Source of the DNA: a phage
Direction: 5' to 3' (one strand)
Sequence record: PX930851.1
Length of the DNA stretch: 64,000 nt
Shown here one piece after another: positions 5,810 to 57,469 of this stretch; the first letter of the stretch is position 1; each line of letters begins with the position of its first letter. The notes under the pieces were generated by a model that saw only the letters and a program-made list of their open reading frames with translations, ran no database searches and was not told the DNA's origin. A program made the translations under genes and the position numbers.

Positions 5810-6091
5810 TTAATTGAACAGTGGAGCGATGCGTTTCAGAAGAGTAGCAGCACCTTTAGCGAATTTTACATCATGAAAAACAGTTTCTTCTTCCGTTACA
5901 ACACGAGCTTTAATGTTTTCACAATCCCAATTTTTACGAACAATCTTCAAAAGCTGCAGTAAATCTTTACATTCAGCAATATCGATAACACATCCACGAG
6001 AATCTTCCATTATCGCACGATAACCGTAAGCCATACCATAATCGTTGAAAGATTGCTCGATGATAATTAAGTTTTCCATTTTATTCTCCAA
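5810..6091 (-). CDS. hypothetical protein
   Basis: 93 aa; SD GGAGA upstream. Confidence 0.45.
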   Translation of the reverse strand: MENKMENLIIIEQSFNDYGMAYGYRAIMEDSRGCVIDIAECKDLLQLLKIVRKNWDCENIKARVVTEEETVFHDVKFAKGAATLLKRIAPLFN

Positions 6092-6105
6092 GTTGTTTTC
6101 TGTAT

Positions 6106-6144
6106 CAGTAGTTGATATTGATATAGTACCATAATCAACTACTG
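6106..6144 (-). repeat. perfect 11-bp inverted repeat (cagtagttgat / atcaactactg) around promoter-like core
   Basis: arms 6106..6116 and 6134..6144 with 17 nt between; intergenic. Confidence 0.5.
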
Positions 6145-6176
6145 ATGTATATAGTTTTATGAAAAAATTTTAAACT

Positions 6177-6668
6177 TTATGCATAGCGAGCTTTGCTATA
6201 GTGTTTAATCCAACTTTCAGGAATGACTTTGTATGTTCCTAAAAATACCGCGTTGTACAGCTTAACACCGTCTTCTACCCACTGATCGGTAATGTATGCG
6301 CACATAGCACGAGTACGGTTAACAACACCTTCCTCACCTTCAGTAAATTCAAACTCATAAGGAGCAACGAACTTGATAGCTTGACCGAGTTTCCACTTAA
6401 AGTCTACACCTACATGCGAAGTATCAATCGTTTCAATTCCTTTAGCGGGAACAGCTTTCAAAAACGCAGGCTCAAGAAATTTCCATCGAACATAACCAAA
6501 CTGAGGTTTAGACATTCCATCTTTAGGAATGATACGCACTTTTACTTCAGAATCTTCATCTTTAACACCATGTTTAAGCTGAATGCTTACGACTTCAACC
6601 AATTTTCCTGCTGCTTTAGAACGGGATTTATCAGATACACGAGCAATTTCACCAATATTAATATTCAT
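6177..6668 (-). CDS. hypothetical protein (MotB position); paralog of 6742..7242
   Basis: 163 aa; C-terminal ITDQWVEDGVKLYNAV resembles VTDQWIEDGVELLNVV of neighbour. Confidence 0.5.
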   Translation of the reverse strand: MNINIGEIARVSDKSRSKAAGKLVEVVSIQLKHGVKDEDSEVKVRIIPKDGMSKPQFGYVRWKFLEPAFLKAVPAKGIETIDTSHVGVDFKWKLGQAIKFVAPYEFEFTEGEEGVVNRTRAMCAYITDQWVEDGVKLYNAVFLGTYKVIPESWIKHYSKARYA

Positions 6669-6712
6669 AATTATCTCTCACTTGTTAAAAAGATTTTATA
6701 CTCCGCAGGACC

Positions 6713-6742
6713 ATTATACTCTGGTCCCAAGAGTTTGTAAAC
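6713..6742 (-). promoter_or_regulatory. T4-type early promoter
   Basis: minus strand gtttac-N18-tataat. Confidence 0.55.
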
Positions 6743-7242
6743 TAGCTTACACGAACATTAATCACTGCGCTGCGAGGAACTACAGAGTACTCTCCAGCAT
6801 GAACTACGTTCAGAAGTTCAACACCATCTTCAATCCACTGATCAGTTACCCAACCGCCAATCGGATTCGCGAATGGACGACGAATATAAACTGCCTTACA
6901 CAACAAATCAGTCGGGTCTTCAATTTTTTCAACTGGTGTTACATACATAGAAACTAAATCCATATCAATATGGGATTTTTCTTGTTCTTCTTTTTCAATT
7001 TCTGTCAATAAATTGAAATCTTCTTCATAGATGATGAATGATGATATCCTTCCATAATAGTTTCTAATTTCCATGTACACTGTACCAATGAGAATTCCGC
7101 TATTAACACTAATAACAGTAAAAGGATATCCGCCAGTTGTACCAAGAAGTTCCCAAAACTTGCTATCAGTCGTATTCGACATTGTCTGGAAATCAATTTC
7201 AGATGGTTTTTTCATTTGATACGTAGTATTAATTTTAATCAT
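6742..7242 (-). CDS. hypothetical protein, paralog of 6177..6668
   Basis: 166 aa; shared C-terminal motif; SD AAGGA. Confidence 0.5.
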   Translation of the reverse strand: MIKINTTYQMKKPSEIDFQTMSNTTDSKFWELLGTTGGYPFTVISVNSGILIGTVYMEIRNYYGRISSFIIYEEDFNLLTEIEKEEQEKSHIDMDLVSMYVTPVEKIEDPTDLLCKAVYIRRPFANPIGGWVTDQWIEDGVELLNVVHAGEYSVVPRSAVINVRVS

Positions 7243-7251
7243 AATTTTCCT

Positions 7252-7764
7252 TTAATCTAAGGTAATAAAGCCTTTTAATTCGGCATGCGATTTGCGAAAC
7301 ATTACTTGATGCCCACCAATGATAACTTGATCATCTGGCACTTCATAAATCGCAATGTACATTCCACGATCTTTTAAGTCTTCACGCTCTTCTCGAGTAA
7401 ACCATCTCATTATATCATATTCACTAGCGAAAGCAAAATGATATAATGCAATAAACCACAATGGAATATAATTTTCAATTCGTGAATAATCTTTATTCCA
7501 TTTAGTTTTAATAGCATCATTAGCATTTTCAACTAATAACTTATCATCGTGTGGAATAGGAATACTTTCATGGCTTTCATAATTATCGCTATGATGATGA
7601 AATGACGATGAATTAATACCGCAAAATTTTAGCCAAGTTCGAGTTTTCATAGAATCAAATCCACGATAAGGAGTTGATTGAACGCATAACTCTTGCCTAA
7701 TTTTCACTATACCACTATCATCATTTAATGCGCTAAACGATGATTCAACACGATAAATTTTCAT
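7252..7764 (-). CDS. hypothetical protein
   Basis: 170 aa taking ATG at 7764 (track start 7803 lies inside promoter); SD GAGGA. Confidence 0.5.
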   Translation of the reverse strand: MKIYRVESSFSALNDDSGIVKIRQELCVQSTPYRGFDSMKTRTWLKFCGINSSSFHHHSDNYESHESIPIPHDDKLLVENANDAIKTKWNKDYSRIENYIPLWFIALYHFAFASEYDIMRWFTREEREDLKDRGMYIAIYEVPDDQVIIGGHQVMFRKSHAELKGFITLD

Positions 7765-50805: not shown

Positions 50806-51786
50806 TTATTTCAGAAGAGTAACCTCAGCGATTTCTTCCCAACCGTTTTTGTCGGTCATAATAAAGTCAGCAAGATAAAGTGCAGTACGCAGTGAAACAT
50901 TGCGTAAACGGTTAACATTGACTTTCATCCATGATAATGCTTTATAAGTTTCTTCATCAGAAAGACCGCGTTTTTGCATCATGTCAGTTGAAAGAATAAC
51001 ATCTTCAACCCTGACCATAATTTCTTCATTAGTGTGAACACCCAAATCTAAATAAACTGAGCGGGAAACTAATGCTTGTAAATGTGGAGCAAGTTTAGTA
51101 CCACGGTCTAATTCGCGGTCAATGTCAACGTTTGTGATAAAAACAATCGTTCCTTTAAATTCAAACTCACGCTCAATGCCTTTTTCTTCTAAGTAAGAAG
51201 ATGCGGTGCTCCAGCAGACTTTACGGGTCTCTCCGGTGTCCAGAGCAGCTTTCAGAAGATTAAGAATGTCCATATCAGAGAAAACATCCACATCATCAAT
51301 CAAAAGGACAGAATTCTCTTCACGATTATTCCAAAGCTGTTCATAAAGACCGATACCAGAGATTTTACCATTAATGCTTTTATATTCGATGTATCCAATA
51401 TCATTTGCTTTATTTAAAGCTTTATCTAAAGAATACGTTTTACCAATACCTGCTGCTCCAGAGATAATTAATGAACGAATGTTTCCGTTAATAATACCAT
51501 TCGTCATCATTCCCATAACATTAAATCTTTTATTAATGCGGGTTTTCATATCTTCATACGATTCTTTAACTTCTTCAACTTTTACACCATCATATGAAAT
51601 GTCTGATTTGTAAACCCAAACACCGCGACGCTTACCGTCAATTTCAACAAAAACTTTACCATCTCCTTGTGCATCTACCGGAGCATTATCTGGGAACCAT
51701 TCACCTAAGAGCTCAAAAGTTCCAGAGATTTCTTTACCGAAGTAGATACCCTTATTGATAGTTACAGTTTTCATTTTATTCTCCAA
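50806..51786 (-). CDS. P-loop ATPase (AAA-like)
   Basis: 326 aa; Walker A GAAGIGKT, Walker B VLLIDDVD. Confidence 0.6.
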   Translation of the reverse strand: MENKMKTVTINKGIYFGKEISGTFELLGEWFPDNAPVDAQGDGKVFVEIDGKRRGVWVYKSDISYDGVKVEEVKESYEDMKTRINKRFNVMGMMTNGIINGNIRSLIISGAAGIGKTYSLDKALNKANDIGYIEYKSINGKISGIGLYEQLWNNREENSVLLIDDVDVFSDMDILNLLKAALDTGETRKVCWSTASSYLEEKGIEREFEFKGTIVFITNVDIDRELDRGTKLAPHLQALVSRSVYLDLGVHTNEEIMVRVEDVILSTDMMQKRGLSDEETYKALSWMKVNVNRLRNVSLRTALYLADFIMTDKNGWEEIAEVTLLK

Positions 51787-51843
51787 TTTTACATTTGTTT
51801 TGATAGGGTAATAATATCACACTACTACCCTGCTGTAAACAAT

Positions 51844-52107
51844 TTATTTTAATGTTTGCCAAATTTTTACTGCTTCACGACGAGATACTTCTACAGCTCC
51901 AAGTTCTACAGCTTTTTGGCGTCGCCGAGCGTGTAAGTCATAATGTTTAATGCGTTTATCTTGAAACCAAGAACGTTTCATTCCTATTGCTTCTGCCATT
52001 TCGTGAAGCTCTTCAATATCTCCATCAGTGAACATATGACAATTTTTAGTTGGATGACCGCGAAGTTTCCATCCATGATTCATTAAAACATCTACGTAAA
52101 CTGTCAT
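51844..52107 (-). CDS. hypothetical protein, DUF4031-like by recollection
   Basis: 87 aa MTVYVDVLMNHGWKLRGHPTKNCHMFTD... Confidence 0.45.
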   Translation of the reverse strand: MTVYVDVLMNHGWKLRGHPTKNCHMFTDGDIEELHEMAEAIGMKRSWFQDKRIKHYDLHARRRQKAVELGAVEVSRREAVKIWQTLK

Positions 52108-52253
52108 TGATTCTTCTCCAAATAAGTTTCGATAATTTTCTGGGCGAGATAAACCGCGTTATCTTCAGTTGCGTCTTCCAAGAAACTTTCAAAACACTCT
52201 GAAATTTCTTCTGTATCAATCAACTTTTTTACTTCAATTGGTGTAATTTTCAT
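52104..52253 (-). CDS. small acidic ORF, not in track
   Basis: 49 aa MKITPIEVKKLIDTEEISECFESFLED...; ATGA overlap with next gene. Confidence 0.3.
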   Translation of the reverse strand: MKITPIEVKKLIDTEEISECFESFLEDATEDNAVYLAQKIIETYLEKNQ

Positions 52254-52289: not shown

Positions 52290-52319
52290 ATAGTACCATA
52301 AAGCTTTATGCTTGTAAAC
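52290..52319 (-). promoter_or_regulatory. T4-type early promoter
   Basis: minus strand gtttac-N18-tactat. Confidence 0.5.
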
Positions 52320-52348
52320 CGTTTTGTGAAAAATTTTTGAAATAAAAA

Positions 52349-52368
52349 AGGGAGCCCGAAGGCTCCCT
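52349..52368 (-). terminator. intrinsic terminator (UUCG hairpin plus U6)
   Basis: agggagcccgaaggctccct followed on minus RNA by UUUUUU; directly after nucleotidyltransferase stop. Confidence 0.65.
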
Positions 52369-52369
52369 A

Positions 52370-53383
52370 TCATTTATAATAACTTCGATGGTTTTCAAGA
52401 TAAACCTGTTCGAGGAAATTATTCCAAAAGCTCATATCTACTGTTTTAGGCATACCGTTCTTAGAAGCTTCAGTAGATGCTGCTTCTACTTGATCAACCA
52501 CATCTTCCAAAAACTCTTGAACTGTTTTAAATGGATGTTTACCCAGCTTCACGTCGAGAATAAATGGAGCATCTTGGAGTGGATAAACCAAGTCGCCAGT
52601 TTTGTAAATTTCCAATAGTTGAAGTCCACCACGACAAGCATGACTTAGTGCTTTCCAGTCAATGCCTTCATTAGCTTCGGCTTTACGAGCACGTTCACCA
52701 TATTCAGCATCTAATTTATTCAGTGACTGCTTAAGCTCGATAAGAGAAAGTGTTGTCTGATATTTACGACCCAACACAGTGTAGAACGTTTGCGGGCCTG
52801 TTTTCTCGTGATTATGGAACACCCATTCACAGAACTCATTTTCAGGGAGTCTGTGTTTGATATCTTCTATCTTAGTACGACGAAGTCTATCAGGGATTCC
52901 TTCTTGATAGTCGACCCACTGGTCAGGGATTTGATTAACTACTTTTAATACATCACGTAATGCGGCCAAACGAGAACCCTTGACACCGTATTTAGAAGCT
53001 TGCTTGCGGACATATCCTAAATAGGATTTCATGTTAGTTGTATAAAACCGTGAACGATTGTCTTGGATAAATTTCCATACATCAGGCAAATCAGATTTAA
53101 CCACTAGTTCAGGCGGAGTGTGAAGCATATCCAATGCTACAGTTTCACCATCTGCTGCTAATTTAAAGAAATACTTAAGACTGTATAGTTCATGGTCAAT
53201 ATCATCTTTAGTGTTTTTAGATGATGTGTTGTTAGTGTTTTTACTCATATGCTCTTTAACATTTCCGATAAGAATATCGCGAGCACGAGGAACAAAGATT
53301 TCTTTAAAATCTACATCAGATTCTGGAGTAGAAGTTCCATAAAGATGACTACCAAAATAGCTTTTCATTACTGTTTTCATCAT
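52370..53383 (-). CDS. Pol-beta-superfamily nucleotidyltransferase, unknown substrate
   Basis: 337 aa; YFGSHLYGTSTPESDVDF (GS-x10-DxD) and downstream VALDMLH. Confidence 0.6.
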   Translation of the reverse strand: MMKTVMKSYFGSHLYGTSTPESDVDFKEIFVPRARDILIGNVKEHMSKNTNNTSSKNTKDDIDHELYSLKYFFKLAADGETVALDMLHTPPELVVKSDLPDVWKFIQDNRSRFYTTNMKSYLGYVRKQASKYGVKGSRLAALRDVLKVVNQIPDQWVDYQEGIPDRLRRTKIEDIKHRLPENEFCEWVFHNHEKTGPQTFYTVLGRKYQTTLSLIELKQSLNKLDAEYGERARKAEANEGIDWKALSHACRGGLQLLEIYKTGDLVYPLQDAPFILDVKLGKHPFKTVQEFLEDVVDQVEAASTEASKNGMPKTVDMSFWNNFLEQVYLENHRSYYK

Positions 53384-53841
53384 TCAGCCTTATATTCAAT
53401 AACAGGACATACTTTAGCTTTACGAGCTTTTAAAAATTCGACGATAATAGATTTCTTGGGTTGAATAGGAGGTAAACCTTTATACGCCCTATCAATATTT
53501 TCTACATGTAAAGCATAATCCTTTTTCCATTTATAATCTTTATATTTTTCACGCAAATGTGCAGGAATAACAAATGAACCGATAATAAGTAAAACAACCA
53601 AAAGCGCAAGTATAAATGCTGATGGAAGCAAAGTCCATAAACTACCAAAAATAAGCCAGCGCTGTAAACTTTCTGCACAAATAATTGTCAGCCCTACGAG
53701 TATAGCACACCCAAAAATAGAAACGAAAAATGTAGGGATAACAATAGACCAAAAGTATGCACATAGCGTCTTAGGTCGTTGCCATTCGTCGTTAAACAAT
53801 TTGAATAATTTATAATGCCAAGAGTTTTCATTAATAATCAT
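53380..53841 (-). CDS. multi-pass membrane protein
   Basis: 153 aa with about three hydrophobic helices; ATG overlaps next gene. Confidence 0.5.
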   Translation of the reverse strand: MIINENSWHYKLFKLFNDEWQRPKTLCAYFWSIVIPTFFVSIFGCAILVGLTIICAESLQRWLIFGSLWTLLPSAFILALLVVLLIIGSFVIPAHLREKYKDYKWKKDYALHVENIDRAYKGLPPIQPKKSIIVEFLKARKAKVCPVIEYKAE

Positions 53842-53843
53842 AA

Positions 53844-54365
53844 TTATCCTTTCATTGGAGGCGTAACGGTTGTTAAATACTTAATCATAGCTTCAGCTTC
53901 TGATTTTGATAATGAAATTTCTTCATTGTTTTGACGAATAGAAATAAAATCCGGATGACGGTCACCACCAGCTTTTAAAACACACATATAAGTATCAACT
54001 TCGCCTTCAATATTTGAAATGATTGAAGCAGTTCCACATGAATGCGGTTTTTGATAAATCAATACAGCTTTTCTTCCACCGTTTGACTGTTCATAGGCTT
54101 TTAATACATCAAGCAAATCAGTTCTTTTATCAATAGCTAAAATATTATTTTCATCTTCAATGTTAAATCCTTCGGATACTTCATAAAGCGTTACCCATAA
54201 ATCACCGATGTCAATAACAGCATTTACTTTTCCACGGCTTTCAAGAGTATGACAAATTTTCTTGATTTCGTCATAACTCATTTTAATAATATCATCTCCT
54301 TGACTAAGAAAGATGTCATTTTTAAATTCAACACGAATTAAACCACTTCCACTTGAAATAAACAT
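53844..54365 (-). CDS. hypothetical protein, paralog of 54372..54929
   Basis: 173 aa; C-terminus SKSEAEAMIKYLTTVTPPM resembles TKDEAIALKTYLDSVIPTM. Confidence 0.5.
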   Translation of the reverse strand: MFISSGSGLIRVEFKNDIFLSQGDDIIKMSYDEIKKICHTLESRGKVNAVIDIGDLWVTLYEVSEGFNIEDENNILAIDKRTDLLDVLKAYEQSNGGRKAVLIYQKPHSCGTASIISNIEGEVDTYMCVLKAGGDRHPDFISIRQNNEEISLSKSEAEAMIKYLTTVTPPMKG

Positions 54366-54371
54366 ATTTCC

Positions 54372-54929
54372 TCACTTTGAAATCATAGTTGGAATGACAG
54401 AATCAAGATAAGTCTTTAGTGCAATAGCTTCGTCTTTGGTAAATGTGACAATATGTGCTCGAGAATCATCAATTTGGCGAATAGTTAAGACATCTCCCTC
54501 TTCATAACATTTTGATACATTTAAAAGAGTTTCATCATTCTGATTGCAATCGTTAGTAATAATAGCATTGCAATTTTTGAGCCATTTTAAACTATGTTTT
54601 CTTTCATTAGAATAATAAAAATATTTAATCTTAGCTATAAAACTATCCCAATGAATAACTGATAAACACATTGACTCACTTTTAATATTAAATCCTGGGC
54701 ATGAAGAATAAAAATGAATTTTGTGCTCATCATTGATGCTTACTATTTTATCAGTATAAGGATATTCAATTTGGGTTAAATGAATGATTTCACTAGGCGT
54801 AAAATACAGCATATCGTCTTCTTGCGTCAAACGATACATGTTATTTACTTTTTCTATAGCCAATTCACCAAAAAGCGGACTAACTTCTAATACTAATCGT
54901 TTCATATTGATTCTCTTCGACTCGCTCAC
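54372..54929 (-). CDS. hypothetical protein, paralog of 53844..54365 (GTG start likely)
   Basis: 185 aa; AGGAG 9 nt before GTG at 54929. Confidence 0.5.
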   Translation of the reverse strand: MSESKRINMKRLVLEVSPLFGELAIEKVNNMYRLTQEDDMLYFTPSEIIHLTQIEYPYTDKIVSINDEHKIHFYSSCPGFNIKSESMCLSVIHWDSFIAKIKYFYYSNERKHSLKWLKNCNAIITNDCNQNDETLLNVSKCYEEGDVLTIRQIDDSRAHIVTFTKDEAIALKTYLDSVIPTMISK

Positions 54930-55064
54930 AATTACATACTCCTTTGAATAATATCAATAATGTTGTTCACCAGATTATAAGTAAACATTGGGTAATTATA
55001 TTGAATCATCACATACACAACAAACAAAACTTTCATTCTCTTCTCCTTGGCAGTTGACAAGATT

Positions 55065-55094
55065 ACTATACCACAACCTTGCCAACTTGTAAAC
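55065..55094 (-). promoter_or_regulatory. T4-type early promoter
   Basis: minus strand gtttac-N18-tatagt preceded by tgg. Confidence 0.55.
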
Positions 55095-55259
55095 CATTAA
55101 ATGACGTTTTCAATAAAATTTTGAAGCTTTGTGTGAGCATCAACCATGATTTTCATTTCTTCTTTGGCGAAAGCTGTACCTCTTTCCCGAGAAGAACACT
55201 CATAGTCAGAAACTGCATTAGCATATTCTTCAATTAGTTTCATTAAAAACATCTGCTTT

Positions 55260-55454
55260 TCAGTTTTCATTATTCCACCTAATTATTTCAAGATATTGAA
55301 CTAACTTAGCTTTAGATTTATCCAAATCCTTTTTAGCTGCTTCTATACCGTCGTATGAATATCCTTCACAATGCTCAACTGCTAATTGATATGAATCTAT
55401 TTCAACATCACGTGCTAATTTAATGATTTTTTCAAACTGTTCATGTGTTAGCAT
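55260..55454 (-). CDS. hypothetical small acidic protein
   Basis: 64 aa. Confidence 0.4.
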   Translation of the reverse strand: MLTHEQFEKIIKLARDVEIDSYQLAVEHCEGYSYDGIEAAKKDLDKSKAKLVQYLEIIRWNNEN

Positions 55455-55456
55455 AC

Positions 55457-55660
55457 TTAAACTCTCGTATTATGATCGATAATTTCATCAAGAAACATAT
55501 CTAACGCTTCTAAAGCATTATCAACTTTAGCTTCAAAGTCTTTAATGCCTTTATTCGAAATACCCGATGAATACCAAGCAAAGTCAATCAGCTCTTCATC
55601 TGCTTTACGAATTGAAGCCACTAATTCCTTGATTTTATCTGCTTGCTCTATACTAATCAT
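55457..55660 (-). CDS. hypothetical small acidic protein
   Basis: 67 aa from ATG at 55660. Confidence 0.4.
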   Translation of the reverse strand: MISIEQADKIKELVASIRKADEELIDFAWYSSGISNKGIKDFEAKVDNALEALDMFLDEIIDHNTRV

Positions 55661-55848
55661 TATTCCACCACATATGACAGAGAGAATATTGCACACGCCA
55701 TGTGAGTTGCAACTTCATCACACATATTATAACGTTTCTTAAGAAGTTCTACAAGTTCTTCACTAGTAACTTCATCCATGTCGACGAAAAAATCACCATT
55801 AATGATGACGTAGATATTTCCTTCTTGATTAAGTGCTTCAATTTTCAT
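55660..55848 (-). CDS. hypothetical small acidic protein
   Basis: 62 aa from ATG at 55848 with SD GAGGAG. Confidence 0.4.
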
Positions 55849-55876: not shown

Positions 55877-55906
55877 ATAGTACCACAGCTCAAACGGAAA
55901 GTAAAC
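55877..55906 (-). promoter_or_regulatory. T4-type early promoter
   Basis: minus strand gtttac-N18-tactat. Confidence 0.5.
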
Positions 55907-55921
55907 CGGTAAAATGAAAAA

Positions 55922-55939
55922 AGTCTCCCGAAGGAGACT
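55922..55939 (-). terminator. intrinsic terminator (UUCG hairpin plus U6)
   Basis: agtctcccgaaggagact followed on minus RNA by UUUUUU. Confidence 0.65.
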
Positions 55940-56330: not shown

Positions 56331-56620
56331 TCAGTCTCCAATTTAATGTTCATAATTCTAGCGTATGATTGTGCCATCTCCGCGCCTCGTTCTATACATT
56401 CAAAATCAGAAGAGCACGGGTCATTTTTATAGGTCGTTCTCATAAAACTATAGAACTGTTCAGATGATTCTACGCTTTTATTTTCAAAAAGCATATAAAC
56501 ATGTCTAATACCAGATTCCATAAATTTATCAAAATGAGGATCGACATTCGCTTCAATCGATGGAGATAAAGCAAATGACAATCCTAGCATGGCAAATAGT
56601 GCCGTTGCTTTTAAGGCCAT
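56327..56620 (-). CDS. rI: lysis inhibition regulator rI (periplasmic antiholin)
   Basis: 97 aa with N-terminal signal-anchor MALKATALFAMLGLSFALSPSIEA. Confidence 0.8.
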   Translation of the reverse strand: MALKATALFAMLGLSFALSPSIEANVDPHFDKFMESGIRHVYMLFENKSVESSEQFYSFMRTTYKNDPCSSDFECIERGAEMAQSYARIMNIKLETE

Positions 56621-56632
56621 AAAGGCCTCCTA

Positions 56633-56845
56633 TCATTTTTGTCCTGTATTTACTTTATGCCGATGCACGGCCTTAACTTTATCAAGGTATTTTTCAAAAT
56701 TTCGCAATCTAGTATAGTCTGCCGGAGATTGGTTGAGTGATACTTCTCGACGCAAAGCTGAAATGATATTTCCAACTTCCCTACGAATTTCATCTAATTG
56801 AAGCACAGTAAGATTGCGAAGTTGCTTTTCAGTTAATTGTAGCAT
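56633..56845 (-). CDS. hypothetical small protein
   Basis: 70 aa. Confidence 0.45.
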
Positions 56846-56887
56846 ATATACCCCTTTAGTTAGATAAACCTATTTATAACTTTTGCA

Positions 56888-57469
56888 CTAACCGAGCTTT
56901 TTAGTTAATTCGTTCCAGTGTTTTCTACACAAAGAAACATAAATTTCATCACCAATACAGATTTGATTACCTTCTTTAACTGGTGTTCCATCTTCCATCA
57001 ATCGAGCTGTCATAATCGCTTTTTTGCCGCAATGACAAACTGCCTTTAGTTCAATAAGTTTATCTGCAATCGCTAAAAGTTCTTTAGAACCTTCAAACAA
57101 TTTTCCAGCGAAATCAGTCCTTAATCCATAAGCCATAACAGGAACATTATATGTATCAACAATTCGGCTTAATTGGTGCACCTGTTCAGTTTTTAAAAAC
57201 TGAGCTTCATCTACAAATACGCAATGAATATCTTTTTGTGCTTCAGCCCATTTATAGAACTCGAAAATATCCATATCATCTGTAATAATATTCGCTTCCT
57301 GTTTAATTCCAATGCGAGAAACAACTTCACAGACAGAATCGCGAGTATCAATAGCAGGCTTAAGAACTAATACACCCATTCCACGTTCTTTATAATTATG
57401 TGCAGCAGTCAAAAGAGAAGCAGATTTTCCAGCATTCATTGCTGCATAAGTAAAAATTAAACTCGCCAT
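56888..57469 (-). CDS. tk: thymidine kinase
   Basis: 193 aa; P-loop AAMNAGKSASLL; C-terminal zinc motif CHCGK...CRKH. Confidence 0.9.
   Translation of the reverse strand: MASLIFTYAAMNAGKSASLLTAAHNYKERGMGVLVLKPAIDTRDSVCEVVSRIGIKQEANIITDDMDIFEFYKWAEAQKDIHCVFVDEAQFLKTEQVHQLSRIVDTYNVPVMAYGLRTDFAGKLFEGSKELLAIADKLIELKAVCHCGKKAIMTARLMEDGTPVKEGNQICIGDEIYVSLCRKHWNELTKKLG

Follow-up and report, generated by a model that had tools for sequence, protein, structure and literature searches.

The polynucleotide kinase-phosphatase and RNA ligase of phage T4 were the first RNA-repair system to be discovered. The repair of tRNA by the kinase-phosphatase and RNA ligase 1, directed against PrrC, follows the same biological logic as the role now discussed for RlaP nucleotidyltransferases and is their proposed pathway partner in the phage (introduction to PMC12776372). 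That December 2025 preprint characterized two Pseudomonas RlaPs, PfRlaP and PaRlaP, which are encoded between rtcB and rtcA and attach one or two nucleoside monophosphates to the 3′-OH of RNA, not to DNA or protein. Experiments with break mimics show a preference for the 3′ end left where a tRNA is broken, and Mn2+ stimulates the reaction; a repaired tRNA that lacked one anticodon-loop nucleotide is also better aminoacylated with RlaP. RlaP is proposed there as an antidote to nucleases such as RloC, which excise a nucleotide after cutting, and T4 NrdC.11 is explicitly named as an RlaP (PMC12776372). A 2021 comparative paper made the same RlaP prediction for jumbo phages. Here we analyze a NrdC.11 ortholog encoded in 64,000 nucleotides (nt) of Tequatrovirus DNA (PX930851.1; the whole stretch is hereafter the window), where it is the last gene of a five-gene unit at 52,349–55,094, all of it on the minus strand. 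The unit also encodes a 34-amino-acid (aa) peptide, two proteins of the y05I family and a membrane protein, which the original prediction, made from the sequence alone, had taken for a partner of the nucleotidyltransferase (NTase).

The NTase gene (52,370–53,383) is 90.5% identical in DNA sequence to T4 nrdC.11, whose product (NP_049709) is annotated as 'nucleotidyltransferase'. Its 337-aa protein matches the Pfam family RlaP (PF10127) over residues 7–136 with 42.3 bits (gathering cut-off 23, E = 9.4e-11), the only Pfam match above a curated cut-off, and with a β insert removed in silico the match stands at 45.1 bits and reaches profile position 174. A match to phrog_388 spans the full length of the protein. 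The family is large: 3324 cluster representatives reach E ≤ 1e-3 and 831 reach E ≤ 1e-30, nearly all of them full length. In an alignment of 130 homologs, G11, S12, Y132, H248, R251 and P268 are invariant, and each of the aspartates D23, D25 and D85 is found in at least 90% of the sequences. The invariant G11 and S12 together with the three conserved aspartates indicate that GS-x10-DVD and VALDMLH, in which the original prediction had seen a Pol-beta NTase signature, are the true catalytic signature. The RlaP family, including PfRlaP and PaRlaP, has the same catalytic triad.

Structure modeling is consistent with this assignment. The AlphaFold model (predicted local distance difference test, pLDDT, 93) comprises a core at residues 1–113, helices at 119–150, the β insert at 155–209 and a helical domain at 214–336, and shows a Pol-beta NTase fold whose active site is intact. 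By its description, the crystal structure of PfRlaP likewise combines an NTase domain with a C-terminal helical domain, the two forming a cleft. An extra substrate-binding domain had been suspected from the size of the enzyme, and the modeled helical C-terminal domain bears this out. Sequence searches of the PDB, with the NTase alone or with the 130-sequence profile, returned nothing significant, the copy searched evidently being without the PfRlaP structure. Searches by profile and structure with the product of 52,370–53,383 do recover a predicted NTase fold; the top-ranked structures are HalB, 3c18 and ANT/KNTase, and the matches listed include no structure of cGAS or OAS. Pfam and PADLOC match neither the NTase nor its neighbors to the CD-NTase, SMODS or OAS families. 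The suggestion of a cGAS/OAS-like or signaling NTase is not sustained.

The window NTase is some 55–70 residues longer than canonical RlaP, with the β insert at 155–209, and its C-terminal half does not align with the canonical form. To place this long form in a genomic context, we scanned one genome per bacterial or archaeal species and examined 78 loci encoding relatives of 26–44% identity, mostly full length. RNA-repair genes lie within 6 kilobases (kb) of the relative in 12 of the 78 loci; they encode RtcB (4 loci), Pnkp (4), RNA ligase (4), Ro60/TROVE (3), Hen1 (2) and RtcA (1). A tandem pair, in which a long NrdC.11-like gene (~325 aa) is followed by a canonical RlaP gene (255–287 aa), usually with a 4-nt overlap, also occurs in 12 of the 78. 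Operons confirmed with Pfam read Ro60-RtcB-RtcA-long RlaP-RlaP-Hen1 in a Nitrosospira, Pnkp-long RlaP-RlaP in an Asticcacaulis and Hen1-Pnkp-long RlaP-RlaP-RNA ligase in a genome of the Chlamydiales. Because the long form often occurs in tandem with the canonical one, the two are probably not redundant, which suggests that a single repair system uses both NTases. By sequence, NrdC.11 is a distinct branch of RlaP, a long subfamily that shares the repair context. The tandem pairs are located at 6004–7746 of locus L107, 6001–7802 of L121 and 5992–7802 of L163, and in nine further bacterial loci.

We hypothesize that the five genes form a single early transcription unit, driven by sigma-70 and made up of two functionally separable parts, within the accessory region between rI and nrdC of a T4-like phage. 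The first would be NrdC.11, acting as an RlaP-type, template-independent NTase on tRNA halves that are short of a nucleotide at the break, such as those left by RloC-type anticodon nucleases. Once the nucleotide was restored, the phage could rejoin the halves into a functional tRNA with its polynucleotide kinase-phosphatase and RNA ligase, whose genes lie elsewhere in the genome, and the step would thereby act as counter-defense. Compared to the known T4 tRNA repair, NrdC.11 would add a nucleotide-restoring step. The second part would be the y05I proteins (MobD.1 and its paralog) and the two-pass membrane protein, a separate, tight gene pair that merely happens to sit upstream of nrdC.11 in T-even-type phages. 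RNA 3′-end nucleotide addition feeding phage tRNA repair as counter-defense is the most likely mechanism, to which we give a probability of roughly 0.55; RNA as the substrate and the role in repair are both inferred. The same phage region contains the proven anti-defense genes nrdC.5 (anti-Dsr1) and 49.2 (anti-OLD), which fits counter-defense.

Several observations weigh against tRNA repair as the function of NrdC.11. When the long and canonical forms are compared with hhalign, only an 82-column NTase core aligns (probability 94%, E = 1.5e-7), indicating that the substrate-binding half and the 55-residue β insert are specific to the subfamily, and the characterized RlaPs fall into a different similarity cluster than T4 NrdC.11 (PMC12776372). 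Most of the bacterial and archaeal loci (66/78) have no recognized repair neighbor. The unit and its flanks contain no gene for an RNA ligase, kinase-phosphatase or cyclase, and no RNA-repair gene was recognized among the recurrent neighbor clusters of 80 phage loci that we collected by searching with the NTase; the T4 kinase-phosphatase and ligase genes lie outside the unit, and none of the loci examined showed them close to the NTase. In distant T4-like phages the NTase instead adjoins genes that we identified by eye as NadR/NatV-like, NadV and Dcm-like (DNA cytosine methyltransferase). Genome-reduced T4 mutants lacking a large nrdC.11-to-mobD.3 fragment are viable in the laboratory. Our confidence is held to the figure above because the biochemistry covers Pseudomonas RlaPs only and because the nearest solved fold to NrdC.11 is that of a DNA-oligomer synthase.

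The family and chemistry would be the same if NrdC.11 worked on RNA 3′ ends for other purposes, such as rebuilding the CCA of tRNAs that host toxins have attacked or changing the stability of host or phage transcripts by tailing them. The labeling of full-length tRNAs and rRNAs by RlaPs, with little nucleoside triphosphate specificity (PMC12776372), is compatible with such roles, as is the lack of a repair partner gene adjoining the NTase in phages. However, the bacterial context is one of ligase, kinase-phosphatase and Hen1 repair and not of CCA or poly(A) pathways, and RlaP halts after one or two additions (PMC12776372). We regard this alternative as unlikely.

The structural neighbors raise a different possibility, namely that NrdC.11 polymerizes short oligonucleotides like HalB, perhaps replenishing the DNA decoys that close Hailong-type HalA channels, or that it nucleotidylates a non-RNA acceptor in the manner of KNTase/ANT or MNT. 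Hailong HalB (PDB 9dbh) is indeed the nearest structural neighbor of the NTase model, but at 14% identity and with no sequence relationship found; the likeness is confined to the generic NTase core, and HalB, at 217 aa, has no equivalent of the NrdC.11 C-terminal domain. No sequence-level link connects NrdC.11 to any PDB chain, whereas RlaP is its sole Pfam match above the curated cut-off and its relatives are found in RNA-repair operons. The Hailong system pairs its NTase with the membrane channel HalA; the window membrane protein has no detectable relation to any solved chain, its family profile matching none, and the corresponding gene pairing is not conserved here. Taken together, these points make a HalB-like or KNTase-like activity distinctly improbable compared to a role of NrdC.11 in tRNA repair.

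The membrane protein, a predicted two-pass inner-membrane protein of 153 aa (53,380–53,841; phrog_944) that T4 lacks, has hydrophobic segments at about residues 30–56 and 66–94 and a basic C-terminal tail. The two segments make the protein, previously described as multi-pass, a two-pass one, and together with the tail they place both of its ends probably in the cytoplasm. Across 24 diverse members of the family, H9, C27, Y29, K143 and C145 are invariant. The family profile has no significant match in the PDB, where only transmembrane or chance matches were returned, and Pfam and PADLOC gave no match of the protein to SLATT or other effector families.

In the window, the stop codon of the membrane gene and the start codon of the NTase gene overlap in ATGA. 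We scored this arrangement in the 42 of the 80 phage loci that have an NTase and an upstream, same-strand gene of the membrane family. The two genes abut in 13 of the 42 and are 0.3–2.6 kb apart in the remainder, with one to seven genes between them in most of the loci. Starting the search from the membrane family, we found an NTase within 6 kb in 25 of 59 loci and none within that distance in 34; on the contigs of several larger T4-like genomes, ~70–150 kb separates the two genes. In 32 loci lacking the NTase, no recurrent family neighbors the membrane gene, and the membrane gene is never a recurrent neighbor of the bacterial NTase relatives. In every one of the 34 loci with both genes, the membrane gene is preceded by a y05I-like open reading frame (ORF) that ends no more than 30 nt from it and is either full length or a 65–87-aa form consisting of the C-terminal domain only. 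Comparing this adjacency (34/34) with the abutting of NTase and membrane gene (13/42) and their co-occurrence within 6 kb (25/59), we conclude that the conserved unit is y05I plus membrane protein and not NTase plus membrane protein.

It is accordingly very improbable that the NTase makes a cGAS-, CD-NTase- or OAS-like nucleotide signal acting on the adjacent membrane protein as a signaling, exclusion or anti-defense pair, an idea favored by the ATGA overlap, by the abutting loci and by the membrane-family genes shortly upstream of an RlaP gene in a diverged metagenomic T4-like phage but largely refuted by the gene distribution just described, by the lack of CD-NTase/SMODS and SLATT or effector matches, by the presence of mobD instead of the membrane gene in T4 and by a close relative with the NTase alone. 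The exclusion or anti-defense role that the original prediction had attached to this pairing survives in part: a general counter-defense function is still plausible, through RNA repair and in a region with anti-defense neighbors, but the NTase-membrane module is not. We also considered a joint counter-defense device of the y05I proteins, the His/Cys/Cys membrane protein and the long RlaP, in which, for example, short oligonucleotides made or extended by the NTase in the manner of HalB and held at the membrane would silence a Hailong-type or other oligonucleotide-gated membrane effector of the host, and the mobD insertion in T4 would be a recent loss; this is a long shot.

Variants of the membrane gene were seen in more distant phages. 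Long forms of 242–245 aa (L036, 2430–3167; L042, 2607–3335) have an extra soluble N-terminal domain of ~90 aa; we tried this extension as a fused y05I domain and found no significant match. Two diverged T4-like phages (L004, 4507–5390; L057, 3712–4592) carry tandem membrane-protein paralogs of 165 and 129 aa; a small gene (94–98 aa) and the beginning of a larger ORF come next, and the sibling contig L006 identifies the larger gene as that of RlaP. The occurrence of two tandem membrane paralogs upstream of an RlaP gene in a diverged metagenomic phage reflects shared T4-like synteny.

The y05I proteins are encoded directly upstream of the membrane gene. The first, the ortholog of MobD.1 (54,372–54,929), has 185 aa when read from a GTG start and 177 aa from the ATG at 54,905, and homologs are annotated with a start matching this ATG. 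The second is a paralog of 173 aa (53,844–54,365) that T4 lacks. The two had been described as paralogs sharing a C-terminal motif, and they are 27% identical over their full length (E = 4e-8), each with both the N and C domains of y05I. The 185-aa protein matches T4_y05I_N at E = 1.5e-38 and T4_y05I_C at E = 1.8e-21. Against PF24449 and PF24448 (cut-offs 24.9 and 27 bits), it scores 131.8 and 76.7 bits and the 173-aa protein 115.3 and 78.1 bits. Conservation within the family peaks in a C-terminal helix common to both paralogs, K-x-E-A-x-A-L-x-x-Y-L-x-x-V-I-P-T-M.

Pfam labels the two y05I domains "putative transcription factor". The y05I structure model, built from a shallow alignment, has a pLDDT of 57 and falls below 50 in the C-terminal domain, and the family profile finds only transmembrane or chance matches in the PDB. 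The proteins may be single-stranded nucleic acid binders resembling Pur-alpha, Whirly or MRP1/2, a tentative idea from modeling to which sequence-profile searches lend no support. We also tried the 173-aa and 153-aa proteins as a duplicate of nrdC.8 and nrdC.7 and rejected this pairing, as nrdC.8 has no y05I match and nrdC.7 no significant similarity.

The fifth gene of the unit, the one nearest the promoter, had been noted as a possible hydrophobic peptide. This 34-aa ORF (54,932–55,036), with a hydrophobic N-terminus, is a real gene, the ortholog of mobD.2 (phrog_3515, E = 6.5e-22). It is conserved at the protein level, with 53–62% identity in diverged T4-like phages and a core of VQY-x-x-P-x-FTYNLVN, and is preceded by the ribosome-binding site AAGGAG. 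A Shine-Dalgarno-like sequence precedes every one of the five ORFs. NCBIfam and PADLOC scans of the five proteins gave no matches, but all five fall into existing Pfam or PHROG families. The earlier statement that none had an assigned function thus needs correction, since the NTase is NrdC.11 and scores above the RlaP gathering threshold.

The promoter, the five ORFs and the terminator all lie where the original prediction had placed them, and they are conserved. The promoter (55,065–55,094) is of the T4-early sigma-70 type, GTTTAC-N17-TGGTATAGT, and its −35 and −10 elements can be read as TTTACA-17-TATAGT with a TG upstream (55,093–55,065). The pattern GTTTAC-N16-18-TAnnnT, expected 2.6 times in the window, is found at 23 sites, 20 of them on the minus strand. 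The site at 55,065–55,094 is the sole one upstream of the unit, none lies inside it, and the next, an early-type promoter at 52,290–52,319 on the same strand, forms its downstream boundary. A search within the unit for the late-promoter sequence TATAAATA found none.

The intrinsic terminator (52,368–52,349) reads AGGGAGCC-UUCG-GGCUCCCU, then U6, giving an 8-base-pair (bp), G+C-rich stem with a UUCG loop and a folding energy of −17.7 kcal/mol (z = −4.1). It is the same in T4, compensatory stem changes keep the hairpin in phages whose NTase is ~80% identical, and the record of phage DalCa independently annotates it as rho-independent. Bounded by a consensus early promoter and an intrinsic terminator, and with no further promoter of this type between them, the unit has the features of a T4 early transcription unit, and we infer from these signals that the five genes are probably co-transcribed from one early promoter. 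A second UUCG terminator, AGUCUCC-UUCG-GGAGACU plus a U-run, lies at 55,922–55,939 (minus strand), with an early-type promoter directly after it at 55,877–55,906; this layout of terminator and then promoter matches that at 52,290–52,368.

The unit is 94–95% identical to those of many Tequatroviruses of Escherichia, Shigella and Yersinia, and at least 80% of the query is covered in 429 of 780 matching phage records. Sequence comparison identifies it as the counterpart of T4 mobD.2, mobD.1 and nrdC.11, plus the y05I paralog and the membrane gene; conservation in T4, raised earlier as a possibility, thus applies to three of the genes and not to the other two. The mobD.1 ortholog is collinear with its T4 counterpart. 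At the place of the paralog and membrane gene (window 53,385–54,346), T4 has the HNH homing endonuclease gene mobD (T4 56,450–57,257). The literature lists mobD as an insertion between nrdC.11 and mobD.1; from the alignment it is a replacement of the paralog and membrane gene, not a simple insertion between genes. T4 nrdC.11 is consequently preceded by mobD and the window gene by the y05I paralog and membrane gene, whereas downstream both are positioned before nrdC.10, with the same terminator. In a close relative (L008, 4820–6014; NTase 95% identical), nrdC.11 comes directly after a mobD.3-like gene, and mobD.2, mobD.1, the paralog, the membrane gene and mobD are all absent.

Immediately after nrdC.11, the window carries a 460-bp mini-unit (51,787–52,246, minus strand) that many relatives have and T4 does not. 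It has its own early-type promoter, the one at 52,290–52,319, and encodes a 49-aa ORF (52,104–52,253) and an 87-aa DUF4031 protein (51,844–52,107). Next is the nrdC.10 ortholog (50,806–51,786, minus strand; 326 aa), the most constant downstream neighbor of the NTase in T-even-type phages, which contains a Walker A motif and matches AAA and STAND NTPase families weakly, below threshold. Just upstream of the unit promoter, consecutive ORFs of 57, 64 and 79 aa (55,097–55,696, minus strand) all match Pfam DUF7438 (E ~1e-15). They form a tandem triplication and are by position the equivalents of T4 mobD.2a, mobD.3 and mobD.4. Name-propagation errors are widespread in public records of this region: NrdC.11 orthologs are called 'thioredoxin' or 'putative HNH homing endonuclease', and the mobD.1 and mobD.4 orthologs are misnamed 'molybdopterin-guanine dinucleotide biosynthesis protein MobD'.

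The idea that NrdC.11 takes part in repair is already in print as a hypothesis, and none of the present results will surprise a T4 or RNA-repair specialist. What is added here is the long RlaP subfamily, whose bacterial genes form tandem pairs with canonical RlaP genes in or beside RtcB and Pnkp/Hen1 operons, together with the finding that the membrane protein is not a partner of the NTase and that the y05I and membrane genes instead form a tight pair. How phages cope with RloC-like nucleases, which remove a nucleotide at the break, has been unclear; if the tRNA-repair reading is true, NrdC.11 would supply the missing step.

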